Origin: Candidatus Schekmanbacteria bacterium
Lineage (GTDB): Bacteria > Schekmanbacteria > GWA2-38-11 > J061
Length of the DNA: 64,000 bases
NCBI GenBank assembly: GCA_016219965.1
Contig: JACRJM010000002.1
Coordinates: 48,233 to 112,232 of the forward strand
Direction: 5' to 3'
Part shown: positions 9,570 to 48,370 of the stretch, one piece after another
How positions within the stretch are numbered: the stretch's first letter is position 1
Layout of the letters: each line of letters begins with the position of its first letter
Position numbers and translations under genes: made by a program
The notes under the pieces: model-generated
Seen by the model: the letters and a program-made list of their open reading frames with translations, nothing else
Databases searched by the model: none
What the model was told of the DNA's origin: nothing

Positions 9570-9570
9570 G

Positions 9571-9696
9571 GGCAAACGTAAGATTTAGCAGCATACTTTG
9601 TCAGCAGCCAGCTCGCAAATCCTCATGTACAGAAAAGTACACTCCGGTATTGCTCGCCGTCCGCTTTCGCGTCTGCTATCTAAATCTTACGTTTGC
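9571..9696 (+). repeat. Extended-hairpin intergenic repeat of about 125 bp, copy B
   Basis: Perfect 17-bp terminal inverted repeat: GCAAACGTAAGATTTAG at 9572-9588 and CTAAATCTTACGTTTGC at 9680-9696. The central hairpin is TGTAC-agaaaa-GTACA at 9626-9641. The reverse complement aligns with 3193-3315. Confidence 0.75.
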
Positions 9697-9770
9697 AAAA
9701 AAATATATTCAGCTTCCTCGTCTTCCACGCAAAACTTGAATTTGCAAAAAAATGTATTCAGCTTTTCTCT

Positions 9771-9795
9771 GTCATTCCCGTGAAAACGGGAATCC
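9771..9795 (+). repeat. GTCATT-headed hairpin repeat
   Basis: The sequence is gtcATTCCCGtgaaaaCGGGAATcc, with perfect 7-bp arms. Confidence 0.6.
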
Positions 9796-9828
9796 AGTGA
9801 TTTTTTGTTTATTCCTTTTTTTGTATGC

Positions 9829-9910
9829 CATTCTGAGTCCTTCGCTTGTCATTCTGAGCGTAGCGAAGAATCTCATGTTTCGGCTCAGGATAAACTCCGC
9901 GAAGAATCTC
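9829..9910 (+). repeat. Block of short GC-rich repeats (CATTCTGAG x2, GCGAAGAATCTC x2)
   Basis: CATTCTGAG occurs at 9829 and 9850. GCGAAGAATCTC occurs at 9863 and 9899. The block includes the hairpin gtcATTCTgagcgtagcgaAGAATctc at 9848-9874. The track ORFs here are translations of these repeats. Confidence 0.6.
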
Positions 9911-9970
9911 GTTTTTTTCTGTTACTTTTACTCGCTCATCTATAATTTTCAATGGGGGTTTTAAAAAGTA

Positions 9971-10080
9971 GTAGCAATCTCAAACCTATTTATGCCACTT
10001 TATTGTCAGCTTTAATCAAGTTTAAGTTACTATTTTAGACTTTTAATCTTGACTGGCTATCTGCGAGAAATGTATAGAGT
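9971..10080 (+). promoter_or_regulatory. Conserved promoter-bearing leader, copy 1
   Basis: It aligns without gaps to 13790-13899; by my count 87 of the first 100 positions are identical. It contains TTGACT at 10049-10054, an 18-nt spacer, and TATAGA at 10073-10078. Confidence 0.6.
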
Positions 10081-10125
10081 AAGAAAATAGAAGACGTATA
10101 AAAAGAATGTTGGGCATAAAATGCA

Positions 10126-11370
10126 ATGGATCAGAATATGAAAATTTATCCGTTCAACGATGGAGATATATTTGCCACATTTCGTAATATCGTAGACAAG
10201 GTAACACAAGAGATTCAGGCATTAGAAAACGAATATGTGCTTAAAGCGTCACTTGCTGAGCTTGAAAATTACTATATCGAAAAGGTCTTTATTCATCCAC
10301 TTGTCCTACACACAGATCATTATTACATTGAGAATCAATCAGGCACGCAGATAGATATTAGTCATGATTTCCGCAGAGCCGTATTTCCTGGACAGCGTGC
10401 TGTTGTCAGAGGGACCTGTTTAGATATAGCCATTCCATACGATGGGGATTCTATTCTTTGGAGAATTCAAGCTTCCACGTTTAGCTTAAGTGGCTTTCCT
10501 GAGATAGAAATACGTGATGATACGATAGTTCTAACTGTTAGTTTCCCAGATGACATGGCAAACCCTGACCAACTTAAGGTAGATATAGATAGGAGCATTA
10601 GGTCATTAACTGATGCAGTAAAAAATCTAAGTACTGACGTAGAAAAACATAACAATTCAGTGCCGCAAATTATTAAGGCTACCTTACAGCGCAAGAGAAT
10701 GTTAGCCGAATCTACCATTGGTACTGTGTCATCTCTTGGAATTCCAATAAAACGGCGCGACAAGCCATTAACATTCACAGCACCTATGAAACGACGAGAG
10801 TCTCCCATACCTAAGCCAAAAGTTCAAATCGAAGCATATAAACTTGAACCAGTCTTATCAGAAGAAGAGTACCAACATATACTGGAAATTATGCGAAGCA
10901 TGTCTTTAGTAATTGAAAGGAATCCAGCCGTTTTTTCTTCTCTGGATGAGGAGGCTATTCGAACCCACTTTCTCTTACAGTTAAATGGCCACTATAATGG
11001 AAGCGCTACAGGCGAAACCTTTAACGCTTCAGGCAAAACAGACATTCTCATTAGAGTTGAAAATAGAAACATATTTATCGCTGAATGCAAGTTCTGGAGA
11101 GGTTCTTCGGGATTTAATGAAGCTATTAATCAGCTCCTTGGTTATTTATCCTGGCGGGACACTAAGTGCGCATTGCTAATATTTAATAAAACTAAAGATT
11201 CCTCTGGTGTTTGTCAAAAAATGCATGAAACAATGAACTCTCGTCCAGAACATAAAAGAACAATCACATTTAATCCTAATAGTGATGCAAGATACATTTT
11301 CGTAAAAGAAACAGATCCAGGTCGTGAAATTATAATTACAACACAATTGTATGACTTGCCCATTATTTAG
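10126..11370 (+). CDS. Hypothetical protein with C-terminal PD-(D/E)xK-type nuclease motif (cassette ORF 1)
   Basis: 414-aa ORF; an alternative start is ATG 10138. The C-terminal core is GKTDILIRVENRNIFIAECKFWRG (D-x13-E-C-K), followed by QLLGYL. The middle has a basic, Pro-rich linker (KRRDKPLTFTAPMKRRESPIPKPK). I do not recognise the N-terminal half. Confidence 0.55.
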   Translation: MDQNMKIYPFNDGDIFATFRNIVDKVTQEIQALENEYVLKASLAELENYYIEKVFIHPLVLHTDHYYIENQSGTQIDISHDFRRAVFPGQRAVVRGTCLDIAIPYDGDSILWRIQASTFSLSGFPEIEIRDDTIVLTVSFPDDMANPDQLKVDIDRSIRSLTDAVKNLSTDVEKHNNSVPQIIKATLQRKRMLAESTIGTVSSLGIPIKRRDKPLTFTAPMKRRESPIPKPKVQIEAYKLEPVLSEEEYQHILEIMRSMSLVIERNPAVFSSLDEEAIRTHFLLQLNGHYNGSATGETFNASGKTDILIRVENRNIFIAECKFWRGSSGFNEAINQLLGYLSWRDTKCALLIFNKTKDSSGVCQKMHETMNSRPEHKRTITFNPNSDARYIFVKETDPGREIIITTQLYDLPII

Positions 11371-11383
11371 GATAATTGCAGAT

Positions 11384-11475
11384 GGCTAACAAAACGCTAA
11401 AGAGGGACGAGGATTAGCCGTCTTTTTTTCATTTCGGACTCTGTGCACCCGCGCCCTTCATGTTGGGTGTTAGGC
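11384..11475 (+). other. Integron attC-like recombination site 1 (92 bp)
   Basis: The 5' box is GGCTAAC (RYYYAAC-like) and lies 14 nt after the stop codon. The 3' box is GTTAGGC (a perfect GTTRRRY). The two boxes are complementary with one mismatch. The interior is only imperfectly palindromic. Confidence 0.5.
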
Positions 11476-11555
11476 AAGATAGTACATTAGGAAAAAATAA
11501 AGAGATGATTATCGTTAGACAATTGATGACGATGATTCCCAAATATGAGGTGTAA

Positions 11556-13055
11556 ATGAGAGGACGTAAGAATTTAATAGATGAATTAAGCCCCATTCTC
11601 TTGGTGTTGGGGGTTGTGGCAAATTTAGCTGCTATAGTGACGCCACTTTTGCCATCCGCAGCACCATGGATGTCTTTATTGTTCCTTGTGTTCGCAGTTT
11701 TGTTTTGGCTGTTTATTTTGTACAAAAGAATAAATACACCACATAAAGCACGCACTGCACCTGTTCACCTTCACTCTGATTGGGACGCAACTGCACTTGT
11801 GTCCAGTTTATCAAATGCTAAAATTTCGGTGATTAAGCCATCTTTGAAGATTCTTGAGTCACTTTCATTGCATCTTATAATAGCCGACAGGCTCGATACA
11901 GGAGGATGGTCAAAAACGCAGACTTGGCGTTTTGTTCGAGTTAAAAAACCTCTTTCTCCTGTTGGAACTCTAACAGGCACATACTTCGCATTCGAGGCGC
12001 TTAGGCCTTATGGTTATCTGCATTCCTCAGAAGCAAATCATCTTAAAAGTAAACTGTCTGAAATAGTAATGCCAGATGGACGAGTTAAGCGACAAGTTCA
12101 ACTTACGGGCACTGGCATAACAGAAATAGTTTCGGAAAACCTGCGGCACTCTTCTGCGTGGTTTCTTCTTCGTGCATCAACAGGTGATCATCCTACACCC
12201 GCCGATAGAAATTGCGCACTACGAATTGCTGCTGACCTTGCTGGTAGGCTCGAGGTGGCAGAGAGTTTAAAAGGTTTAAAAGAAGATAAAGATATGATGG
12301 GCACTGCATTTGCAACTGTTGCACTCATTGCTGAAGAGCCATGGTTCCAAAACAGAAAACCAGAGCATCAAGAACTGGTTCGATTGTCAATCAAGGCGTT
12401 CTGTAAGTCAAATGAGTTAAGTACTCCGGGTCATCCCTCTTGGGGTGCTGAAGGAGGTGGCTCAGCTGCTGCAGAAACTGCTGCACAGTGGTGTACAGTA
12501 TGGCTCTTATGTTCTATTGCTGACTGGCATGGCTTGGATAGCAGTTTGAAATATGCTTTGTCTGATCAATTACTTGACCTCATTGAGGCAAACATTGCCG
12601 CAGCGACCACTAAGGACATTTTATTGCCATACGCTTTCACTCGTGACGCATCGCGAACGCCAATAGGAGAGTCACTTTTGGCGACGGCAATAGCATGCTA
12701 TGCTTCTATGATACTTTTGGGCATTCAAACCCAGCGAGCAGACACAGAAAGAGTGGAAAGAGCAATTCATGATCTTCTGCATCGAATTATAGACCGAGGT
12801 ATTAAATACTCAACAATTGATTCTTTAGTAGAGCCTTACGAAGGGTACCTGTCATGGGCTGCCTTGCTTTTTGCACTGAGACCAATTCTTCATCCTGTTG
12901 CTTTAAAAGCGACAAATTTTATTTCTGAAATATTGTCAGACACTGCAATTAATTTAGGATCTAATGACTTAATGTTAGCCCATGAAAAAATTAACTTCTT
13001 GTATAACGAAGCTGGAATTACTCTGCACCCTAATGGTCTAATGCAGGATTTGTAG
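11556..13055 (+). CDS. Membrane-anchored protein with alpha/alpha-toroid (prenyltransferase/terpene-cyclase-like) repeats (cassette ORF 2)
   Basis: 499-aa ORF with a GAGGTG RBS. Two N-terminal TM helices are predicted (ILLVLGVVANLAAIV..., MSLLFLVFAVLFWLFILY). Repeated GGW...T.Y.A.EAL-type segments follow (DTGGWSKTQTW...GTYFAFEAL, HSSAWFLL, GTAFATVALIA, EGGGSAAAETAAQW). Confidence 0.45.
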   Translation: MRGRKNLIDELSPILLVLGVVANLAAIVTPLLPSAAPWMSLLFLVFAVLFWLFILYKRINTPHKARTAPVHLHSDWDATALVSSLSNAKISVIKPSLKILESLSLHLIIADRLDTGGWSKTQTWRFVRVKKPLSPVGTLTGTYFAFEALRPYGYLHSSEANHLKSKLSEIVMPDGRVKRQVQLTGTGITEIVSENLRHSSAWFLLRASTGDHPTPADRNCALRIAADLAGRLEVAESLKGLKEDKDMMGTAFATVALIAEEPWFQNRKPEHQELVRLSIKAFCKSNELSTPGHPSWGAEGGGSAAAETAAQWCTVWLLCSIADWHGLDSSLKYALSDQLLDLIEANIAAATTKDILLPYAFTRDASRTPIGESLLATAIACYASMILLGIQTQRADTERVERAIHDLLHRIIDRGIKYSTIDSLVEPYEGYLSWAALLFALRPILHPVALKATNFISEILSDTAINLGSNDLMLAHEKINFLYNEAGITLHPNGLMQDL

Positions 13056-13111
13056 AGAAAACGACATTTATGAGTCTATAGGTATCAAATGAATAATGAA
13101 CGAATATAAAT

Positions 13112-13176
13112 TCCTAACAACCGCATCAAGGCCGACGCCGAGAAATGCGGCGGCGCCACTGGTGAGGCCGTTAGCC
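13112..13176 (+). other. Integron attC-like recombination site 2 (65 bp)
   Basis: The sequence is TCCTAACAACCGCATCAAGGCCGACGCCGAGAAATGCGGCGGCGCCACTGGTGAGGCCGTTAGCC. The arms are complementary with bulges. As I remember it, the layout closely resembles the classical 60-bp aadA-type attC. Confidence 0.75.
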
Positions 13177-13191
13177 CCGAAAGGATTTAAC

Positions 13192-13710
13192 ATGAGACGA
13201 GAAGAAAGAACAATCCCATCAGAAGAGATCCTACTGAAAGCAATGGAGCTTGCATGGAAAGACCATCATCACGCGCGAGACCAAACATGGAAGACAGTAC
13301 AGATGGTTGCGGTATTAGGCGCGGGTCTATTGACTATAGATCTCCAATACAAGAGTTTGCTGGCAACCGCACTAGCAGCCCTTCTCGTGGTCCTTGCTTC
13401 GGCCGTTGGTGTTGGGATCACCTGGAATCATAGGAAGTTAGAAAGGAGAAAATTTATACATTTGATGAATTGTGAAGAACTTCTCGGACTACACCGCGAC
13501 GATATCATTCCTCTTGCCTGCAATGATGACTCGATGAAGAACAAAAGTGATCTTGTAAAAGACAGCGCAGTCAGCGTTCCGAAGAAATACAAGTTCATCG
13601 ACGTTATCAATCCTTTCAAGCAAAATACTTCACTTTTCATCCTTCGAATTCACCTTGCTATCATGGTGTTTGCATTACTCATCATATTCCTAAGGTGGCG
13701 TATCACATGA
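13192..13710 (+). CDS. Small membrane protein, three predicted TM helices (cassette ORF 3)
   Basis: The track ORF starts at 13096 but reads through attC-2. The ATG at 13192 lies 16 nt after the GTTAGCC box. Predicted TM segments are VQMVAVLGAGLLTI, LATALAALLVVLASAVGVGI and LFILRIHLAIMVFALLIIFL. Confidence 0.55.
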   Translation: MRREERTIPSEEILLKAMELAWKDHHHARDQTWKTVQMVAVLGAGLLTIDLQYKSLLATALAALLVVLASAVGVGITWNHRKLERRKFIHLMNCEELLGLHRDDIIPLACNDDSMKNKSDLVKDSAVSVPKKYKFIDVINPFKQNTSLFILRIHLAIMVFALLIIFLRWRIT

Positions 13711-13789
13711 GTAAAAATAAGGAGAGCGCCTGTTTTTTATGGAATCTATAAAGGCGGAATTTTAAATCTTATTCTTCTGGTCACTGCCG

Positions 13790-13900
13790 TAACAATCTGA
13801 TACCCATTTATGCCAATTTATTGTCAACTTTGATCAAGTTTAAGTTACTATTTTAAACTTTCCTTCTTGACTGACTATCTGCGAGAGAGATATATAAGTA
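13790..13900 (+). promoter_or_regulatory. Conserved promoter-bearing leader, copy 2
   Basis: Paralogue of 9971-10080. It contains TTGACT at 13868-13873, an 18-nt spacer, and TATATA at 13892-13897. The spacing and offset are the same as in copy 1. Confidence 0.6.
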
Positions 13901-13991
13901 TATGAAGTACAATATATATAAAAAAGAATATTACGTTTACCAATTTTATCCAAATTAGTATCTAAGTTCAAAGCTTACAAGATAGAAGATT

Positions 13992-15671
13992 TTGAATAAT
14001 TCTCCAACAAATATGTGGATTGTAATTGATGAAATGCCCCCCGGCTCAATGAATTTTGAGAAAATTGGTGGTATAAAGATTTTTCGCCCTCGAGCATCTA
14101 ATGAGGTAGCACTTTGTGTTGAGGCTGAAAATAATCTTCGATCTGAATTTGAGGTTGGAAAATATACTGATAGGGAAACTATAAACAGGATTCTAAAACA
14201 TCAGTTTAGTTTTTTTATTAATTTACTTAACCAGTTATTGCCCACCTTAGCATCTTTAGATTTTTTGAGATTTCTTCTGACCGAATATGATAAGACCTCA
14301 GAAATTGATCGCTTGTATAAAAACAATCAGCTTAATGATGATAAGGAAAAATGGGCTGATTTAGGCCCAACTATACGGCGAGCAATAAAATATCTCGCAG
14401 AGCGAGTAATTCTGTTTCGACCAGTAGAACTGCCTGATGTGTCAGATGAAATAATAATAGAAGCTACAGAAAAAATATGGATTTGTGCAGAAGAATTGGT
14501 GAAGCACTACATTTTAAGCGACCAGACGTTTATGATCTTTCCTGATGATACAATTTTTGAAGTCAATCCAGTAGGTAATCACAACTATTGGACGCTTAAG
14601 ATAAATAATAATTATGCCACAGAAGTGCGAGAACGTATAAGAATTGATACAATGAATCGGGATAAATTTATACATTCCCCGTCATTTGACCTGCAATCCA
14701 GTGAGCATGAAAAAATATTGGGGGATGCATTCAAAAATACTATGAGTTTATCATATCTGGAAGTTTTAGGGACTTTACGAACTTTCATTGATTTAGCTCA
14801 ACCACCTCAAGAGGGTTTTCCTATTCCGTTTGTACACCGAGAACAAACTCTCAACTTGCTAGCAAGCTACTTAAACTTCCCGCAACCAGCTATTGAGCAG
14901 GTTATTGCCGGTTTCTCCATTTCCCAATCCAATTTAGAAACCGAAGGTCGTGAGATATGGAAACCGAAACAGGAGTATAGGGCTTTCAGAAGGGGTATTT
15001 TTGAAGCCCCTCATTCTACAGGAACTCATCTAATTTTTTCCAAAGCAATGGCAGAAGAGAGCGCACTTCAGCTTGTAGGGGGAATAGTATTTAAAGACAT
15101 TCCACCAGAATGGCGCAGTGATGAAGTAAATGTGGCTCTGGAAACTTTGTCAAACGAAGCTGGAAAGTGGTTTGAGCAAGTAGTTTTAAAAAATTTTGAA
15201 ATGGTTGGCGTTTTTGGCATAAAATCTATGAAGAATGGGATTGGACAGCAAAATAAGAGAATTACAATTCCTCCAGATGTTGGCGAGATTGATTATCTTG
15301 GATATTCTCCATGTGAAAATCTATTGGTTTTGTGTGAGTGTAAAATGGTCAGAGCAGGCTTTGAACCAAAATATTTCCGCGATGAGATATATGAATTTGT
15401 GGGCAGCAACACATCTTATTTTAAGAAGTTTCAAAGGAAAATTGATTGGGTACGTCAGAACGTAAATGATATATGTGATGCTCTATCATCTGTTCGGGTA
15501 CATGATGTACCCATTACACCGACCCGTATTGCAACAGTAATTGTCACACTCTATCCGTCTATCGTTTCTTGTTTTACTACTGATTTTCCATGCGTCTCTA
15601 TCACCGAAATCATGATGGGATACAAACAGAATGGGAATTGGCCCTATAAATTGGGAGTACTTATTTGCTGA
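13992..15671 (+). CDS. Hypothetical protein with C-terminal PD-(D/E)xK-type nuclease motif (cassette ORF 4)
   Basis: 559-aa ORF starting at TTG; an alternative start is ATG 14013. The C-terminal core is WFEQVV...GEIDYLGYSPCENLLVLCECKMV (E...D-x14-E-C-K). I do not recognise the N-terminal 430 aa or so. Confidence 0.55.
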   Translation: MNNSPTNMWIVIDEMPPGSMNFEKIGGIKIFRPRASNEVALCVEAENNLRSEFEVGKYTDRETINRILKHQFSFFINLLNQLLPTLASLDFLRFLLTEYDKTSEIDRLYKNNQLNDDKEKWADLGPTIRRAIKYLAERVILFRPVELPDVSDEIIIEATEKIWICAEELVKHYILSDQTFMIFPDDTIFEVNPVGNHNYWTLKINNNYATEVRERIRIDTMNRDKFIHSPSFDLQSSEHEKILGDAFKNTMSLSYLEVLGTLRTFIDLAQPPQEGFPIPFVHREQTLNLLASYLNFPQPAIEQVIAGFSISQSNLETEGREIWKPKQEYRAFRRGIFEAPHSTGTHLIFSKAMAEESALQLVGGIVFKDIPPEWRSDEVNVALETLSNEAGKWFEQVVLKNFEMVGVFGIKSMKNGIGQQNKRITIPPDVGEIDYLGYSPCENLLVLCECKMVRAGFEPKYFRDEIYEFVGSNTSYFKKFQRKIDWVRQNVNDICDALSSVRVHDVPITPTRIATVIVTLYPSIVSCFTTDFPCVSITEIMMGYKQNGNWPYKLGVLIC

Positions 15672-15683
15672 GATTGAAGGTAA

Positions 15684-15793
15684 ACCTAACAAGCGTTTGC
15701 AGCCACTATGTTTTTCAGCTTTGTTTTGTCAGCCAAGTTGTCGTAAACTGAAACTGCTTATCTTGCCCCGCAAAGGTTCAAAAGGGGTTAGGT
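15684..15793 (+). other. Integron attC-like recombination site 3 (110 bp)
   Basis: The 5' box ACCTAAC is a perfect RYYYAAC and lies 13 nt after the stop. The 3' box GTTAGGT is a perfect GTTRRRY. The two boxes are perfectly complementary. There is an inner TTTGC/GCAAA pairing and a partly palindromic centre. Confidence 0.6.
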
Positions 15794-16037
15794 CTTGAAA
15801 GATAAGTTTTGTTATGTAATCTGAAGACTGTAAAGCTTGGACATACAATGAAACAAATTGCTTCATATTTACAAGTCCATTCTACAGATGCAAGCAAGTT
15901 AATAATACGTTAGAAAAAAAGTGATAATTCAAGAAATGGCCCCTCTAATTTCCCTGCTTTTTGACTTACTATTCAAACGAACTTGACACGGGATTTTCTG
16001 ATGGATATTCTTTGGATATACGCAGGAGGTAGCGTTA

Positions 16038-16286
16038 ATGGTTACGAAAATTCAAAAATGGGGAAACAGCCAGGGGCTGCGTATTGCCAGACAGGTTCTT
16101 GAGGACGCGCACATTTCGGTGGGCGACGAGGTTGACGTGACAATAAGGAAAGGCATGCTTATCATTGCTCCGATAAAATGCATTCGTGGTCTCAGGAGTC
16201 TGGAAGAACTGGTCTCACGCATACCCAAGAGCTACAAGCCCAAAGAGACTGATTGGGGCAAACCAGTGGGTAAAGAGGTCTGGTAG
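16038..16286 (+). CDS. mazE: AbrB/MazE/SpoVT-family antitoxin
   Basis: 82-aa ORF with the signature N-terminus VTKIQKWGNSQGLRIARQVLE. The RBS is AGGAGG. Confidence 0.85.
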   Translation: MVTKIQKWGNSQGLRIARQVLEDAHISVGDEVDVTIRKGMLIIAPIKCIRGLRSLEELVSRIPKSYKPKETDWGKPVGKEVW

Positions 16287-16394
16287 GTGAAAGAAGATAT
16301 TCCTGAAAAGGGCGATTTTATTGCAGTCACATTCAATCCCCAGTCCGGGCATGAACAGAAAGGCCGCCGCGCGCGTGGGACCTGCGCATTATAA
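16287..16394 (+). pseudogene. mazF: Truncated MazF/PemK-family toxin (N-terminal 28 aa or so only)
   Basis: A GTG lies directly after the mazE stop. The translation is VKEDIPEKGDFIAVTFNPQSGHEQKGRR, which matches the MazF N-terminus (GD.....F.P..GhEq.G.R). It then diverges (ARGTCAL) and stops at 16392-16394. Confidence 0.7.
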
Positions 16395-16454
16395 AAGATA
16401 CACCCCCGAAGTTAATCCTGCGACGAAAAAAGAGATTTTCACCATCTAAATTAA

Positions 16455-16487
16455 CATAGTATGTCGAAAAAATGTCGACATACTATG
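16455..16487. promoter_or_regulatory. Perfect 12-bp inverted repeat upstream of abiEi (candidate operator)
   Basis: CATAGTATGTCG (16455-16466) and CGACATACTATG (16476-16487) are separated by 9 nt. The site ends about 30 nt upstream of the AbiEi ORF. Confidence 0.55.
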
Positions 16488-16514
16488 CTCAAATGTGCTA
16501 TTTTATAGTATGGG

Positions 16515-17177
16515 ATGTTTCAAGGAGACGGTAGAGTGACAATAAACATACTTCGTAAAAAGGTAAAGGGTGAGGAGTTTGATTATCAGATCCTCCTTGA
16601 CTGTCTAAAGGGAGTGAAATGCCCGCGCGACAAGATTACAAACATGCTCAAGCGTGGTATGATAATTCGTATTAAGAAGGGCATCTATGTCTTTGGCAAG
16701 GATTATGCCCGAAGTCCTTTCTCAAGGGAAGTGCTTGCTAATATGATTTATGGACCTTCCTATATATCGCTTGAATATGCCCTTCATTATTATGGGTTTA
16801 TTCCTGAGCGCGTCGAGGCATTGACATCAAGTACATGCGGACGCGGGCGGAAATTTTCAACGCCTGCCGGATTGTTTATTTATTGTTCGATACCGCGAAA
16901 GGCTTACAGCAAAGGGATAGACAGAGTAGAAATCTCGGGTGGAAGCTCCTTTCTGATAGCTGTACCGGAGAAGGCGCTTGCAGACAAGGTATTCCTTGAC
17001 AGGGGGACAGGCATAAAGACACAAAGAGAAATGGAAAGATATCTGAGCGAGAACCTTCGTATTGACTTTAGTCAACTGGAACGTCTTAACCATAATTTGA
17101 TTTGTGAGCTTGCATCTTGCTATGGCTCAAGGAAGATAAGGCTGTTAAGCGAGCTCATCCATAAGTCAGCAAAATAA
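16515..17177 (+). CDS. abiEi: AbiEi-family type IV TA antitoxin / transcriptional regulator
   Basis: 220-aa ORF; the GTG at 16536 after AAGGAG is an alternative start. It has the IRIKKGIYVF motif typical of AbiEi winged-helix N-domains. It sits directly upstream of abiEii. Confidence 0.7.
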   Translation: MFQGDGRVTINILRKKVKGEEFDYQILLDCLKGVKCPRDKITNMLKRGMIIRIKKGIYVFGKDYARSPFSREVLANMIYGPSYISLEYALHYYGFIPERVEALTSSTCGRGRKFSTPAGLFIYCSIPRKAYSKGIDRVEISGGSSFLIAVPEKALADKVFLDRGTGIKTQREMERYLSENLRIDFSQLERLNHNLICELASCYGSRKIRLLSELIHKSAK

Positions 17178-17192
17178 AAAAATGAATGATAT

Positions 17193-18059
17193 ATGAATGA
17201 AGTAATTTCAAAAATGATTTCTGCCTATGAGTGCAGGACGCTCGACGACTATGTAAAGGCACTTCGCGAGATTATGCAGGAAGTTGCCCTCCTCGGACTT
17301 TGGAGAAGCAAATTTTTCGAGCATTCTGCTTTTTACGGCGGAACAGCGCTGCGGCTTCTTTACGGATTGGACCGCTATTCGGAGGATCTTGATTTCTCGC
17401 TTCTTAAAGCTAACCCGGATTTTAACATTTCGCGGTATCTTAATGTCCTGAGAAATGAGCTGGTGTCATATGGCTTTGATGTAAGCCTTGAGAAAAAGAA
17501 GAAAGGAGAAGGCACTGCAATCCAATCTGCTTTTCTAAAGGCTGATACATTGAAGCAGCTTATCGTAGTTGAAGCTCAGAAAAATATAGTAGCAGAACTG
17601 CCGCGAGGAAGAATAATAAAAATTAAACTCGAAATCGATACAAATCCACCGGCAGGATTTGAAACTGAAACAAAGTTCCTGCTTCAGCCTATCCCTTTTT
17701 CAGTCAAAGTCTTTTCATTGCCTGATCTTTTTGCGGGAAAGATGCACGCACTTCTCTGCAGAAACTGGAAAAGCAGGGTTAAGGGACGTGACTGGTATGA
17801 CTTTGTCTGGTATGTTTCAAATCATCCGAATTTAAGGCTTTCACATCTTGAAAAAAGAATGCAGCAGAGTGGACATATAAGGGAAGAAGAACATCTTGAA
17901 GAAGATGAATTCCGCTCAATGTTGAGGGAAAAAATAAAAGCGGTTGACGTAGTACAAATTAAAAAAGAGGTAACTCCATTCCTAAAAAATCCGGATATGA
18001 TTGCAATATGGTCTGAAAAGTTTTTCCTGAGCCTGATAGAGAAAATTAAAATTGTATAG
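17193..18059 (+). CDS. abiEii: AbiEii/AbiGii-family nucleotidyltransferase toxin (DUF1814)
   Basis: 288-aa ORF with the signature FYGGTALRLLYGLDRYSEDLDFS, and K.HALL.R...RDWYD downstream. Confidence 0.85.
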   Translation: MNEVISKMISAYECRTLDDYVKALREIMQEVALLGLWRSKFFEHSAFYGGTALRLLYGLDRYSEDLDFSLLKANPDFNISRYLNVLRNELVSYGFDVSLEKKKKGEGTAIQSAFLKADTLKQLIVVEAQKNIVAELPRGRIIKIKLEIDTNPPAGFETETKFLLQPIPFSVKVFSLPDLFAGKMHALLCRNWKSRVKGRDWYDFVWYVSNHPNLRLSHLEKRMQQSGHIREEEHLEEDEFRSMLREKIKAVDVVQIKKEVTPFLKNPDMIAIWSEKFFLSLIEKIKIV

Positions 18060-18095
18060 AGAAGAAAAACATTTCTTATCCTAAACAGGCTTTTT

Positions 18096-18308
18096 TTATG
18101 CGACTATAAGTTCAACAGGGAAAGGCTGGTCAATGCCGACGGTTTTGCTGACATAAAGTTTTTCAATCCCTATTACTTTGCCATTCTTATCTTTTTTAAG
18201 AATAACACCTTCCCCTACCTCTTCGCATAGAACCTCATCCTCGGGATTCCCAAACCAGATATCCATTGTGTCCGATTTCTTGTGATAATAAACAATTACC
18301 TTGTCCAT
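18096..18308 (-). CDS. DUF2283-domain protein (putative antitoxin-like partner)
   Basis: 70-aa ORF. The segment DTMDIWFGNPEDE...GVILKKDKNGKVIGIEKL is typical of DUF2283. It overlaps the upstream small ORF by 13 nt. Confidence 0.7.
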   Translation of the reverse strand: MDKVIVYYHKKSDTMDIWFGNPEDEVLCEEVGEGVILKKDKNGKVIGIEKLYVSKTVGIDQPFPVELIVA

Positions 18309-18613
18309 ATCACATCTCCTTCCTTTACTTTCTCTGTTGGATAAGCTGTAATTATAAAACCTTTCATTCCCGAATTCTTAACTACTACACAATATAGTCT
18401 ATCAATCAGTTTGTAGTAAAGGAAAACATTCCTGTCTGTCCTGCTCTGTTTGATTTCATCAGGAAATTTCAAAGTATTTTTTACAGCTTCTTTCTTCCCC
18501 TTCATAATCGGGTGCTTTATTGTGGTGATATAAAGCCAATAGTTTTTTGTTGTTCTTACCTCAATATTAAGAGGTGTCATTATTGAAAAAAATATTTTTT
18601 CCTCAAAATACAT
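18296..18613 (-). CDS. Small hypothetical protein, putative toxin-like partner of DUF2283
   Basis: 105-aa ORF; the real start may be the internal Met (MTPLNIEV...). The C-terminus (GFIITAYPTEKVKEGDVIW) resembles small toxin families that pair with DUF2283. The family name is not certain. Confidence 0.4.
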   Translation of the reverse strand: MYFEEKIFFSIMTPLNIEVRTTKNYWLYITTIKHPIMKGKKEAVKNTLKFPDEIKQSRTDRNVFLYYKLIDRLYCVVVKNSGMKGFIITAYPTEKVKEGDVIWTR

Positions 18614-18635
18614 AAGATGTTCTCAGACTTTATAC

Positions 18636-19364
18636 TTAGCTTTTCCTGAAACGGTAGCTTAGGAATACCATTGCAAGACCTGCCGGAAATAGAAGGCCAG
18701 AGCTTGGTTCAGGCACCGGATTGACACATATCTGCTGGCCGTTGTTAAGTTTGCCCGGATTGCCGAAACCTGTTCCCCAGGGGCTTATGGCTGATGCTGC
18801 AAATGATGATAAAAGGGTTTCGTCAGATGACGTTATAAAGAGTTTGTAGATTGAGTTGTTAATGGCAATATCTGGGAAAATAAAATCCTGAAGCAATATG
18901 TCATTTCCGTTTCCTGCAATTCCGTCAATGCTGTCAATGAGCGAGATTTCCTCGCCGGTGTTAAGCAGGCTCATTGCCGAGGAAGTGACTCCTGCATAAA
19001 TTGACGAATCCGTATAGAGGGAAGAAAAACTCACAGCGCCTGCCGGCTCGCTTATAACAGCAAATGTGCCGTCGGGTATTGAATGTATGTCAGCATATCC
19101 GGAAAGCTGTATGATGGATTTGTAGCTTGCCCCGCCATTGTCGCTAAACATGAGTCTTGAAAGGTTAAGGATATTTCCGGTGCCATTGTATATCTCGATC
19201 CATTCTCCGCCGGTATCAGAAACCGGATGGTCATACATTAGTTCGCTTATCTCAATACCGTCGCTGATATTAATTGGCGAAGCTACGGAGACAGAGGTGA
19301 GAGTGATGAGGCATACAAAAGATAAAACAGCACAGCAGATAAAACCAAAGTTACATTTTTTCAT
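18636..19364 (-). CDS. Secreted lamin-tail-domain protein with PEP-CTERM sorting signal
   Basis: The start at 19364 follows AAGGAGG. A signal peptide is present (MKKCNFGFICCAVLSFVCLITLTSVSVA). The LTD-like motif is ISELMYDHPVSDTGGEWIEIYNGTG. The C-terminus is VPEPSSGLLFPAGLAMVFLSYRFRKS. Confidence 0.75.
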   Translation of the reverse strand: MKKCNFGFICCAVLSFVCLITLTSVSVASPINISDGIEISELMYDHPVSDTGGEWIEIYNGTGNILNLSRLMFSDNGGASYKSIIQLSGYADIHSIPDGTFAVISEPAGAVSFSSLYTDSSIYAGVTSSAMSLLNTGEEISLIDSIDGIAGNGNDILLQDFIFPDIAINNSIYKLFITSSDETLLSSFAASAISPWGTGFGNPGKLNNGQQICVNPVPEPSSGLLFPAGLAMVFLSYRFRKS

Positions 19365-43908: not shown

Positions 43909-45738
43909 ATGGAAACGCTCAATATTGCAAGGCCGGATTACAACCCAAAAGTATCAAAAATCCCGGAGTTAATAGGCAGGCACCCAGGAACGATTGCACC
44001 TGTTATCAAATGCAGGCCGCAGGCTGTACAGATCGTAACACCTGTAAGCGGCTCCCGCGTTTCAGGAAAAATTGAGATTAAAGTGAGAATCAGGGATGGT
44101 TATCCTGAGGTCTCCGACAACCTTAAGAAAATAGCCGTCACAGTGAACGGGGAGAAATTTGAGTTCAATCAATCACCCTGTTCTGTTTTTTATGACACGG
44201 CACCGCTCGGTTTCCGCATTATGAAAATAAAAGCAGAGGCCATAGGGAAGGGTGAAGAAGGGGAAAACGATGTCCTTTCATCATACTACATAAATGTTGC
44301 CGCAGAGAACGGCGCATTTGACAGGACAAAGCCCCTTATCCTTTTTACAGGCGTCATAGAGCCAAAGCTCACCAACATAGACAAGCCGTGGACTTCTCAA
44401 ATGTACAAGGACTGTTATCTTTTTTCTAAGAACATAATGGACCATCTCATGCATTATGGGTTTGTTCCATCATTTTTAAAAGAGGTCGATCAGTTGAGCG
44501 TGCTTATCGATCCCACTCAGCCTAAAAAAGGTTTTGAGGAATACACGCCTGTTAAACTTATTGATGTGCTTGGAAGGGAAAAGGGACCAGGACAGGAAAA
44601 GACATACACGGAGATGATTCCAGACTGTGTCTGGATGGAGCCTACCAAGACAAGGCTAGGAACTGTGCTTCGCGGCTATCATACTCCGAACTCCTTTACA
44701 CCGAATGATATGGCGGATATTTACGAAGTCTTTGCCGCAAGGGTGTGCACATACTACAATCAATTTGAAAAGTTTTCCGGAATGAGGGGATGGGACCAGA
44801 CCCAGATGCTTTTTAACGACGTAATGGAGAGGCTCGAAAAGGCGGGTTATAATTATCCCTGGGAACCATATTCACTTCTCATTGGTGAAAAGCCGCATAC
44901 CCTGAAGGAAAAGATAAAAAAACATGTTCTTCAAAACAACATCTCAAGCGTTCTTCTTTCAGACTATCTCACAGACCTTTCAGATTTTGAAGATGCCAAG
45001 TGCCTCTGGGAGGAAGCGCAGGAGGCTGTTGATCTTGTGGCGCAGGAAACTGGCAGGAAGCTTCAGCTCGCAGTCCTCTGGTCAACCGGGGGAAGACTGA
45101 TGGGAATCCATCCGGGTTTTGCGGAGGCGGCGTTAAAAGTCACGCAAAATGAGATAGAGTCATCTGGCATCCCTGAAAATGCAAAAATTGGTATGATCCT
45201 TGGCGAGCATGGCTATCCTCCGGGCAATGGCGACGAGGACGTGATCGGGATCAACATGGAGCGGGTTAGACAGAACATGAGAAGCCATTATGACAGGAAG
45301 CTTAAAGGGCTGAGAAAAGGATATACAGAGTACCATCTTGGCATGAATGAATTTAACAACAATCCGGAATCATACCAGATTGGCTCAATGGAATGGATGG
45401 TTGACTATCTCCACAGGGGCTTTGACTGTATCATCTTCCAGCCCTACTACTTTACGAACGAGACCATAGACCTCTTTGAACATCTGCGCCACTGGGCATT
45501 TGAAGTGGATGGCGTTGATGGCCATGAATTCCACGGCGGCCATGAGGTGCTTGACAATTACAGGAGCGATTTCAATTTCAGAGGGACAAGGATAATAATC
45601 ACCGGCTCTATCGTCGGCAGGTATGAAAAAGACGGCGCAAAATCGCCGCTCCTAAAGGAAGGCTATAATCTTTTCACAGGAGCGATTGCAGAGCAGATCG
45701 GGGAAAGGATAGAAGAGCTCGGTGTTCCTTCAATATGA
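43909..45738 (+). CDS. Hypothetical protein (Ig-like N-terminal segment; weakly chelatase-like C-terminal region)
   Basis: 609-aa ORF with a GAGGGGGG RBS. An Ig-like segment is VQIVTPVSGSRVSGKIEIKVRIRDG. The C-terminal GEHGYPPG ... FQPYYFTNETIDLFEHL weakly recalls class II chelatase/ferrochelatase motifs. Confidence 0.3.
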   Translation: METLNIARPDYNPKVSKIPELIGRHPGTIAPVIKCRPQAVQIVTPVSGSRVSGKIEIKVRIRDGYPEVSDNLKKIAVTVNGEKFEFNQSPCSVFYDTAPLGFRIMKIKAEAIGKGEEGENDVLSSYYINVAAENGAFDRTKPLILFTGVIEPKLTNIDKPWTSQMYKDCYLFSKNIMDHLMHYGFVPSFLKEVDQLSVLIDPTQPKKGFEEYTPVKLIDVLGREKGPGQEKTYTEMIPDCVWMEPTKTRLGTVLRGYHTPNSFTPNDMADIYEVFAARVCTYYNQFEKFSGMRGWDQTQMLFNDVMERLEKAGYNYPWEPYSLLIGEKPHTLKEKIKKHVLQNNISSVLLSDYLTDLSDFEDAKCLWEEAQEAVDLVAQETGRKLQLAVLWSTGGRLMGIHPGFAEAALKVTQNEIESSGIPENAKIGMILGEHGYPPGNGDEDVIGINMERVRQNMRSHYDRKLKGLRKGYTEYHLGMNEFNNNPESYQIGSMEWMVDYLHRGFDCIIFQPYYFTNETIDLFEHLRHWAFEVDGVDGHEFHGGHEVLDNYRSDFNFRGTRIIITGSIVGRYEKDGAKSPLLKEGYNLFTGAIAEQIGERIEELGVPSI

Positions 45739-47320: not shown

Positions 47321-48370
47321 TCAATAATGAAGTGCAACACTTGGGAAAGCAGAAAGGAAGATGCTATCCTAAGTTGCTATGTCAAAAGAATACATTCATT
47401 TAAGTATATTTGAAAGAGATAAAATTACTATTATGCTTTCAGAGAAGAAAACACTTGGAGAGATAGGAAAAGAGCTTGGGCGAAGTAAAAGCACTATCTC
47501 GCGGGAGTTAAAGCGCAATTCTTCTCCAGAGTATAAGCTCTACTTGTCACACAGAGCTCATACTCGTTCTGTTTTGAGACGAGAGGCGGCAAGTTCACGC
47601 GCGAGGCTTAAAGACAAGCACATCAAGTTATATGTGCGCGACAAGCTCAAGGAAGGCTGGTCGCCTGAGCAGATATCAGGAAGAATAGGCATTGATTTTC
47701 CATGCCTCTCAATAAGCCATGAGGCGATTTATCAGTATGTTTACAGCTCTGAAACAGAGGGACGTCAGGATTTGATTCAGTGCCTGAGACGGTCACATCG
47801 TAAGCGCAAAAGCAAGGGGATCTCGAGGAAAGTGCGTAAAACAAAGATACCCAACAGGATATCTATAGAGCAAAGACCGGCAGCAGTGGAAGCACGTCTT
47901 GAGGCTGGACACTGGGAATCAGACAGCCTGGTATCCAGAAAAAGCCATGTTGCCCTTAACTCGCTGGTAGAACGAAAGAGCCGGTTGCTGAGGCTCACGA
48001 AACTGAACCGAAAAACAGCCGCATCTACATACGAGGTTATTGTTGAAAGGTTAAAAGACCTTCCTATTGAGGCGAGAAGGACGCTAACCATGGATAACGG
48101 CACTGAAAATGCAGAGCATCAGGAGATTACTGCTGCCATTGGAATAAAATGTTATTTTGCTCATCCATACGCCTCATGGGAGCGCGGAACTAATGAAAAT
48201 ATCAATGGTCTCATAAGGTGGTACTTACCAAAAGGTACTGACTTTAATACCATAACCAACGAACAAATAGCTCGCATCGAATCATTGATTAACAATAGGC
48301 CAAAAAAGTGCCTTGACTATAAAACACCATTAGAAGTAGCTTCTCAATTTGTTGCACTTCGAGGTTGAAT
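47320..48370 (+). mobile_element. IS30-family insertion sequence (about 1.05 kb)
   Basis: Imperfect terminal inverted repeats are TTCAATAATGAAGTGCAACACTTG (left) and CAATTTGTTGCACTTCGAGGTTGAA (right), sharing the core GAAGTGCAACA. The transposase stop lies inside the right IR. The exact ends are uncertain by a few bp. Confidence 0.75.
47379..48368 (+). CDS. IS30-family transposase
   Basis: 329-aa ORF. The N-terminal HTH is LGEIGKELGRSKSTISRELKRN. It also has GHWESD and LTMDNGTE..H...........YFAHPYASWERGTNENINGLIR, the IS30 DDE signature. Confidence 0.9.
   Translation: MSKEYIHLSIFERDKITIMLSEKKTLGEIGKELGRSKSTISRELKRNSSPEYKLYLSHRAHTRSVLRREAASSRARLKDKHIKLYVRDKLKEGWSPEQISGRIGIDFPCLSISHEAIYQYVYSSETEGRQDLIQCLRRSHRKRKSKGISRKVRKTKIPNRISIEQRPAAVEARLEAGHWESDSLVSRKSHVALNSLVERKSRLLRLTKLNRKTAASTYEVIVERLKDLPIEARRTLTMDNGTENAEHQEITAAIGIKCYFAHPYASWERGTNENINGLIRWYLPKGTDFNTITNEQIARIESLINNRPKKCLDYKTPLEVASQFVALRG

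Follow-up and report, generated by a model that had tools for sequence, protein, structure and literature searches.

We analyzed a 64,000-nucleotide (nt) stretch of DNA from Candidatus Schekmanbacteria bacterium (GenBank assembly GCA_016219965.1, contig JACRJM010000002.1, positions 48,233 to 112,232 of the forward strand), referred to here as the window, and found that its positions 9971-16400 very probably constitute an integron cassette array that now lacks an integrase, i.e., an attC site cluster that has no integron integrase (CALIN), made up of four complete cassettes (A to D) and a truncated fifth one (E). The array has five junctions rather than the three counted in an earlier note on this DNA, since two of them are formed by a repeat, termed D1 here, which is not an attC site by model or by fold. 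Its parts are as follows.

9971-10109, plus strand: D1 copy 1, 139 nt, 30% GC, with TTGACT-N18-TATAGA; its last base is the G of GTTGGGC (10109-10115), where cassette A is joined at its 5' side.
10110-11469, plus strand: cassette A, with the open reading frame (ORF) 10126-11370 (414 amino acids [aa]) of the PADLOC family PDC-S54; its 3' site is site 1.
11384-11475, plus strand: attC site 1, GGCTAAC (R'') to GTTAGGC (R'), 92 nt, the eroded 3' site of cassette A.
11470-13170, plus strand: cassette B, bounded by the R' boxes of sites 1 and 2, with the ORF 11556-13055 (ORF499, 499 aa) carrying N-terminal transmembrane helices.
13112-13176, plus strand: attC site 2, TCCTAAC (R'') to GTTAGCC (R'), 65 nt, the best preserved and aadA-like.
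13171-13930, plus strand: cassette C, with the ORF 13192-13710 (ORF172, 172 aa, a membrane protein) followed by D1 copy 2.
13789-13930, plus strand: D1 copy 2, 142 nt, 27% GC, with TTGACT-N18-TATATA; its last base is the A of ATTACGT (13930-13936), where cassette D is joined at its 5' side.
13931-15787, plus strand: cassette D, with the PD-(D/E)xK-type ORF 14013-15671 (ORF552, 552 aa); its 3' site is site 3.
15684-15793, plus strand: attC site 3, ACCTAAC (R'') to GTTAGGT (R'), 110 nt, the eroded 3' site of cassette D.
15788-16400, plus strand: the remnant of cassette E, with mazE (16038-16286) and, at 16287-16394, a mazF stump of 35 codons; this is where the array stops, and no other attC follows.

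The coordinates and end sequences given for the three sites in the earlier note proved exact on rereading, and each site does lie just 3' of a co-oriented ORF: the distances from the stop codons of the plus-strand ORFs 10126-11370, 11556-13055, and 14013-15671 to sites 1, 2, and 3 were measured as 13, 56, and 12 nt, respectively. The paired end boxes, R''-like (RYYYAAC) and R'-like (GTTRRRY), are likewise present, with CTAAC and GTTAG in all three sites; agreement with the R'' and R' consensus is 7/7 and 7/7 for site 3, 6/7 and 7/7 for site 1, and 6/7 and 6/7 for site 2. On the plus strand of the window, which has a GC content of 41.6%, CTAAC occurs 20 times and GTTAG 26 times, and about 0.9 CTAAC…GTTAG pairs with a spacing of 35-150 nt are expected window-wide. 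Such pairs were found only at the three sites, all within 4.4 kb, showing that they do not belong to a dispersed repeat; a repetitive extragenic palindromic (REP)-type repeat, which had been raised as a contrary explanation, was thus not seen in the 64 kb.

As a stand-in for IntegronFinder's attC model, we used a covariance model (R1) built from 16 seed sites, none of them a window sequence: the attC sites of aadB, aadA1, aadA2, and cmlA5 from two class 1 arrays and 12 well-folded sites drawn from arrays around homologs of the window genes. The aadA1 site was verified as 100% identical in plasmid records, including R100 (∼1,960 records at ≥99% identity). In the 19-pair structure of R box, L box, and stem, 80% of the cells are paired, versus 24-43% when the 3' partners are slid. 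When both strands of the window were scanned with filters off, the top three matches were sites 2, 1, and 3, at their exact coordinates, full-length, and all on the plus strand, with 17.6 bits (E value, 0.12), 17.3 bits (E value, 0.13), and 10.8 bits (E value, 3.6), respectively; the fourth-best match reached 9.5 bits. In the calibration of R1, true attC sites outside the seed set scored 15-54 bits, and noise in ∼170 kb of other DNA went up to 10-12.5 bits. Sites 1 and 2 are thus weak yet above the noise of the model, while site 3 taken alone is at noise level. On either side of the array, R1 revealed no additional attC (9570-10140 upstream, 15790-18700 downstream). Rfam gave no match at gathering thresholds across the whole window and only noise at E values up to 10 in the 9- to 18-kb region, which, there being no Rfam family that matches the sites, says little about their attC status.

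Site 2 folds as an attC-like hairpin, with single-stranded DNA folding energies of −13.4 kcal/mol (z score, −1.0) for the bottom strand and −15.5 kcal/mol (z score, −2.4) for the top strand, and C and A occupy both bulge positions of R1. The imperfectly palindromic interior described for all three sites, and the bottom-strand pairing of R and L boxes with extrahelical bases, accordingly hold for site 2 and not for sites 1 and 3, in which the pairing has been lost and the base composition has drifted toward that of the AT-rich host. These two are eroded remains of attC sites, not well-formed ones. As for the notion that site 2 is strikingly close to the aadA attC, the resemblance is real, and moderate: site 2 shares with the 60-bp aadA1 attC the words CTAACAA, TCAAG, and GCCGACGCCG in the 5' arm as well as the same bulged C and A and the hairpin layout, but the two sites agree at only 43 of 60 positions and diverge in the 3' arm, the L box of site 2 is imperfectly paired, and its 17.6 bits compare with 65-72 bits for the aadA/aadB sites, which were R1 seeds. 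A blastn search of site 2 against plasmids, tried as a test of this likeness, returned only short GC-rich chance matches and no attC; it was uninformative because the shared words are shorter than 11 nt, and it was replaced by direct alignment.

The evidence that carries the array reading comes from related contigs, in which two of the cassettes, A and D, have close homologs lying between intact attC sites. The gene of cassette A has a homolog on contig L086 (91% identity in protein, 92% in DNA) that is followed by an intact 66-nt attC. Site 1 is homologous to this attC, with 27 of 31 positions identical in the 5' arm and 19 of 31 in the 3' arm, and its center is 26 nt longer and unstructured. 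At the 5' end, the homology among the window, L085, and L086 starts precisely at GTTGGGC, window positions 10109-10115, with GTTAGCC as the L086 counterpart and with TTGGGCAT of the window corresponding to TTAGCCAT of L086; at the other end, it stops at the R' box of the attC. Furthermore, the 5' flank of the L086 cassette, GTTAGCCAT, is perfectly reverse complementary to ATGGCTAAC, the R'' box of its own attC. The agreement of the cassette A 5' end with the reverse complement of its own R'' is 9/9 in L086 and 7/9 in the window.

Cassette D shows the same pattern. Homologs of ORF552 lie between attC sites scoring 19-44 bits on L087/L090 (81% identity), L091 (77%), and L096 (70%), and in L087 and L091 the stretch homologous to the window is bounded on both sides by the GTT crossover, where a G is followed by TTAGGTTTACC in L087 and L091 and an A is followed by TTACGTTTACC in the window (13930-13941). 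The reverse complement of these 5' ends is GGTAAACCTAAC, which forms the R'' region of site 3 and does not differ among the three contigs; in the window, 10 of 12 positions at the 5' end agree with the cassette's own R'' read as its reverse complement. The R'' box and spacer of site 3, GGTAAACCTAACAAGCGT, are also identical to those of the intact 120-nt attC of L087, and the attC interiors beyond them diverge. Unlike sites 1 and 3, the intact homologous sites do fold (L086, −16.4 kcal/mol and z score −4.5; L087, z score −1.8). A 5' end that complements the cassette's own R'', together with homology that stops between G and TT, is the signature predicted for integrase-mediated insertion.

No integrase was found beside these cassettes. 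A tblastn search with IntI1 against all 64 kb gave nothing better than an E value of 5, and queries with XerC and with a tyrosine recombinase from contig L092 (see below) gave one weak and not credible match (E value, 0.004). This candidate, at 44773-45039, was probably spurious: it has 29% identity over 93 aa to the catalytic end of the query and lies in a 609-aa ORF without a Pfam recombinase domain. The statement that no tyrosine recombinase occurs in the 64 kb is thus borne out insofar as no integron integrase or Xer-type recombinase was detected with the three queries. In a complete integron, intI, attI, and the cassette promoter Pc would stand beside the array, and there is no intI in the window. 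A CALIN has been defined as two or more attC sites separated by less than 4 kb, sharing one strand, and without an integrase (2016, IntegronFinder); the three sites are co-oriented, with spacings of 1.7 and 2.6 kb and no intI in the window, and so fall within this definition. Spacing and strand, the lack of intI in the window, and the homologous cassettes between intact attC sites all support the CALIN reading of the earlier note.

Judging from the junctions, an integron integrase would have joined the cassettes one by one. In such a reaction, the folded bottom strand of a cassette attC would recombine with the target site, with the crossover between G and TT of GTTRRRY, and the first bases of the linear cassette (TTRRRY…) would therefore be reverse complementary to its own R'' box, located at the 3' end, as seen for A and D. 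Transcription would start at the two D1 copies, with copy 1 driving cassettes A, B, and C and copy 2 driving D, while mazE would use a promoter-like site of its own (TTGACA-N17-TATTCT at 15983-16011). With no integrase detected in the 64 kb, a fold retained by just one attC site out of three, and a deletion that cut the last cassette, the array is partly decayed and most likely frozen. The 3' arm of site 1 is only 61% identical to its L086 counterpart, compared with 92% for the gene; that the sites diverged faster than the genes and lost their pairing suggests relaxed selection on recombination. At the right end, mazE is intact (MazE_antitoxin; E value, 5.7e-6), but mazF stops after 35 codons, with the stump matching PemK_toxin positions 1-22 of 109 (E value, 0.007), and we therefore read this end as a deletion scar that truncated the last cassette.

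The two junctions at D1 call for a separate explanation. The D1 copies form an AT-rich direct repeat and are 86% identical, with T-tracts phased at ∼10-11 nt, and have sharp edges: the left edge reads GTA(A/G)CAATCT, and the junctions at the right edge are fixed by homology, for copy 1 with L086 and L085 and for copy 2 with L087 and L091. An extension of the homology upstream of D1 was rejected, with a local alignment score no better than that of shuffles. The hexamers, TTGACT being a consensus −35 element, suggest that D1 is promoter-like; a consensus promoter scan does not call them, because the −10 element lacks the final T. R1 yielded no attC match in D1 even when the search space was reduced to 271 nt, and D1 has no fold (z score, about 0 to +1.5). 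Its 20-mer core had no match in the genome-contig collection and one chance match, inside priA, in the metagenome-contig collection; an nhmmer search against all retrieved loci, including those with IntI genes, returned nothing, and the 64-kb window holds no further relative beyond the two copies. The two PD-(D/E)xK-type ORFs, PDC-S54 and ORF552, have no detectable relation to each other, showing that the shared D1 is not part of a gene duplication. Given that two unrelated cassettes are joined to D1 at the canonical crossover, D1 would have acted as a recombination partner.

A plausible, if tentative, explanation is that D1 is an atypical or degenerate attC, namely, that of cassette C in copy 2 and that of a lost upstream cassette in copy 1, in which case the locus would comprise five ordinary cassette-plus-site units. 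This is the simplest array logic, as every junction then follows a 3' site, and it agrees with the R''-like start GTA(A/G)CAATCT, the end (G/A)TT, and the length of 139-142 nt, which is within the attC size range; in addition, the ends of copy 2 form an 11-nt inverted repeat (CGTAACAATCT/AGAATATTACG, 9/11 paired), and the loss of structure by attC sites of this array is exemplified by sites 1 and 3. However, the missing R1 match and fold argue against an attC, and the fact that two copies with 86% identity are both unstructured implies that their ancestor was already unstructured at the time of duplication.

The lack of structure is, on the other hand, what attI sites show, since these recombine as duplex DNA. 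D1 could then be the remnant of an attI and Pc platform, present twice, with the locus representing one or two complete integrons after the loss of intI, an explanation that we consider doubtful. In line with it, the promoter-like pair is directed into the cassettes, copy 1 stands first in the array, with a proper R box (GTTGGGC) at its end, and the cassettes joined to the two copies, which are unrelated, start precisely at the crossover. Yet copy 2 lies downstream of cassette C, where integron logic demands an attC, neither copy has an intI or intI pseudogene beside it, the IntI genes of related loci have no D1-like sequence beside them, and the left edge opens with a TAAC-type motif that is rather attC-like.

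It seems unlikely that D1 is host DNA in which an integrase acting in trans inserted cassettes at attG sites (consensus GWT) downstream of a resident promoter. Efficient cassette insertion at genomic GWT sites has been described, as has the expression of insertions near resident promoters, and this route was proposed for small CALINs (Loot et al., bioRxiv 10.1101/2022.09.11.507474). Both D1 junctions, with G or A before TT, fit (G/A)TT, and no intI pseudogene lies nearby; nevertheless, this explanation needs two copies of one host sequence, each hit at the same nucleotide, and D1 was not found elsewhere in the window or in the collections searched. With similarly little confidence, we would suggest that D1 is an undescribed, integron-associated recombination partner of ∼140 nt that forms no hairpin and carries a promoter, either attI-like or a promoter-turned attC, and that can be duplicated so that each copy heads its own expression unit. 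If so, arrays cut off from Pc could stay expressed via internal heads of the D1 type, which resemble attI and Pc.

Several observations weigh against reading the locus as an integron cassette array. The R1 E values of sites 1 and 2 are marginal (0.13 and 0.12), and that of site 3 (3.6) is noise by itself; the stand-in model also missed the 133-nt attC of blaVEB-1. Sites 1 (−6.5 kcal/mol; z score, +1.3) and 3 (z score, +1.1) fold no better than dinucleotide shuffles. Cassette C has no attC of its own, R1 finding nothing in 13690-13960, and D1 copy 2, which takes the place of a 3' site there, passes neither the R1 nor the fold test. For cassettes B and C, no homologous cassette elsewhere confirms the boundaries, and the search for intI covers the 64-kb window out of a contig of 299,973 nt, so that an integrase could still be encoded elsewhere in the genome. 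What settles the origin of the sites is that the cassette homologs elsewhere lie between intact attC sites, with homology breaking between G and TT. It is very improbable that chance matches, a REP-type repeat, or terminators account for the three sites and that the region is simply a defense island, as might be argued from the lack of significant secondary structure in sites 1 and 3, the noise-level score of site 3, and the neighboring AbiE, mazEF, and DUF2283 genes, because the motif pairs occur nowhere else in the 64 kb, have no T-tails, and belong to sites homologous to the intact attC of related cassettes, with the homology breaking at the crossover.

We then turn to the cargo of the cassette array, which the earlier note described as four uncharacterized ORFs and a mazEF remnant. 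This description stands for the mazEF remnant and for ORF499 and ORF172, which have no assigned family, but not for cassettes A and D, which hold a PDC-S54 member and a relative of Upx. The ORF of cassette A matches PDC-S54 over its full length (E value, 7e-134; residues 6-412 on profile positions 4-407 of 410). The family has more than 5,500 homologs and is very conserved, with an invariant motif D306…E320-x-K322. No mention of PDC-S54 was found in the literature searched. Its AlphaFold2 model is poor (predicted local distance difference test [pLDDT] score, 59), and neither a fold search with this model nor a profile search of the PDB gave a significant match. PDC-S54 is thus a candidate nuclease, an assignment made only from the conserved D…ExK motif and the predicted αβββαβ order.

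The PDC-S54 gene is found in cassettes well beyond the window. An R1 match adjoins it in 15 of 78 genome loci, i.e., about one-fifth, and in the scan of the PDC-S54 loci (1.24 Mb), 39 of 40 R1 matches were on the strand of the gene. The loci and contigs are as follows.

Genome loci with a cassette-borne PDC-S54: L006, L007, L009, L010, L011, L015, L024, L025, L028, L036, L038, L046, L047, L055, L072.
Logan contigs with a cassette-borne PDC-S54: L085, L086.

Integron-integrase homologs are encoded near PDC-S54 in L072, L036, L015, L025, and L038, in several loci within 10 kb; the one in L072 is 45% identical to IntI1 over 315 aa and divergent from the array. Carriers of PDC-S54 belong to Planctomycetota, Desulfobacterota, Nitrosomonas, Actinomycetes, Burkholderiales, Anaerolineae, Bacteroidales, and others. 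In two of the loci (L006, 1553-1559; L007, 1551-1557), gene and site overlap, the PDC-S54 stop codon (TAA) being contained in the attC R'' box (GGCTAAC).

ORF552 of cassette D has no PADLOC or Pfam match. Its AlphaFold2 model (pLDDT score, 88) has a single strong match in the PDB, Upx (9wuf), which covers the whole query (E value, 4e-11; probability, 1.00; TM-score, 0.56 by query and 0.29 by target) at 14% identity. Upx is a single-protein anti-phage nuclease of 1,212 aa with dual PD-(D/E)xK domains (PMC13099982; PDB 9wuf). ORF552 shares its fold over the entire length of ORF552 and keeps a D…E-x-K-type motif, with D427 and K444 invariant across 16 homologs. It differs in size (552 versus 1,212 aa), and it has neither sequence-level membership nor the three-domain dual-nuclease architecture. 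ORF552 is therefore a candidate for a protein that may work like a shortened Upx, as a half-size structural relative suggested by modeling rather than a sequence-level member. More distant homologs (L097 to L099) are located in defense islands with genes for an Eco57I-type methylase, PLD-SNF2, and a NACHT NTPase. On contig L092, a 337-aa Xer-like tyrosine recombinase (1920-2933) is encoded directly upstream of, and co-oriented with, an ORF552 homolog, with an IS21 IstB-like gene further upstream; as an integron integrase it was rejected, with 86.6 bits against a cutoff of 265 bits and no attC nearby.

As to the remaining cassettes, ORF499 of cassette B has no known family in PADLOC or Pfam, and only two homologs were found. 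Neither of them adjoins an attC, so that the boundaries of cassette B are set by sites 1 and 2 alone. ORF172 of cassette C starts 16 nt past site 2 and has weak Pfam matches that do not place it in a family. Taken together, the cargo resembles single-gene anti-phage nucleases of the PD-(D/E)xK type (the PDC-S54 member and the Upx-like ORF552), along with two membrane proteins and a toxin-antitoxin remnant, and is a candidate defense cargo; a function in defense is suggested by family membership, fold, and genomic neighborhood.

Toxin-antitoxin and abortive-infection genes continue directly past the array, at 16515-18613.

16515-17177: AbiEi-like gene, after the array.
17193-18059: AbiEii gene, after the array (E value, 5e-34).
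18096-18308, minus strand: DUF2283 protein, overlapping a 105-aa ORF (18296-18613).

The mazF stump is separated from the AbiEi gene by a stretch containing a perfect 13-bp inverted repeat (CATAGTATGTCGA … TCGACATACTATG; 16455-16487; −12.7 kcal/mol; z score, −5.8), possibly an AbiEi operator or a terminator. The intergenic region upstream of the array (9572-9916) is rich in repeats: it has a perfect 17-nt inverted repeat (9572-9588 and 9680-9696), a 49-nt tandem pair (9660-9757), and, at 9830-9916, two copies each of the motifs CATTCTGAG… and GCGAAGAATCTC, a similar motif being present in an Acidobacteriota locus (L060). An IS30-type transposase (HTH_38 and rve core domain) is encoded at 47379-48368, ∼31 kb from the array. 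In addition, an independent short-read assembly (L001; Logan SRR12113407; 6,190 nt) contains window positions 9887-16076; its first 3,000 bases, which were compared, are 100% identical to the window, and it breaks at both ends of the array region.

CALINs are common, with 2,961 reported in RefSeq (Loot et al., bioRxiv 10.1101/2022.09.11.507474). In its small size the array resembles the 83% of CALINs (2016, IntegronFinder) that have fewer than six sites, and its cassettes are unrelated to antibiotic resistance. It differs in that two of its three sites are eroded and two of its five junctions are formed by D1, which is not an attC, and the CALIN call made here combines a home-made attC model with comparative evidence rather than coming from IntegronFinder itself. 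The locus provides a well-documented integron array from an AT-rich lineage that is uncultured, and its decaying attC sites, set beside intact counterparts in other metagenomes, give a direct view of an array fossilizing after integrase loss.

Cassettes for anti-phage defense are known from both sedentary and mobile integrons (Darracq et al., bioRxiv 10.1101/2024.07.02.601686; Kieffer et al., bioRxiv 10.1101/2024.07.02.601719). The window cargo is similar in consisting of single-gene, nuclease-type candidates, with ORF552 fitting the "streamlined variants" described there, but its host is uncultured, with ∼42% GC, in contrast to Vibrio or a clinical plasmid, and its function is a prediction. 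The candidate defense gene PDC-S54 travels as an integron cassette across many phyla, in about one-fifth of the loci sampled, and together with the half-size Upx relative it offers compact single-gene candidates for phage defense that are perhaps more useful than the locus itself.

D1, finally, bears on how integrase-less arrays arise and stay expressed, which is debated in the integron field. Gene-less cassettes that bear promoters have been found in the superintegrons of Vibrionaceae (Blanco et al., PMC11014356), and D1 is comparable to them as a predicted internal promoter able to drive downstream promoterless cassettes; unlike them, it has no recognizable attC, is duplicated, and abuts the next cassette at the crossover. 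With the attG sites of Loot et al., the locus has in common that a cassette is joined to non-att DNA at (G/A)TT beside a promoter-like sequence, with no integrase in the region, but here the same non-att sequence, D1, occurs twice and was not found elsewhere. Given that CALINs, integron defense cassettes, and in-array promoters are all documented, the locus is, apart from the D1 module, a known kind of element.

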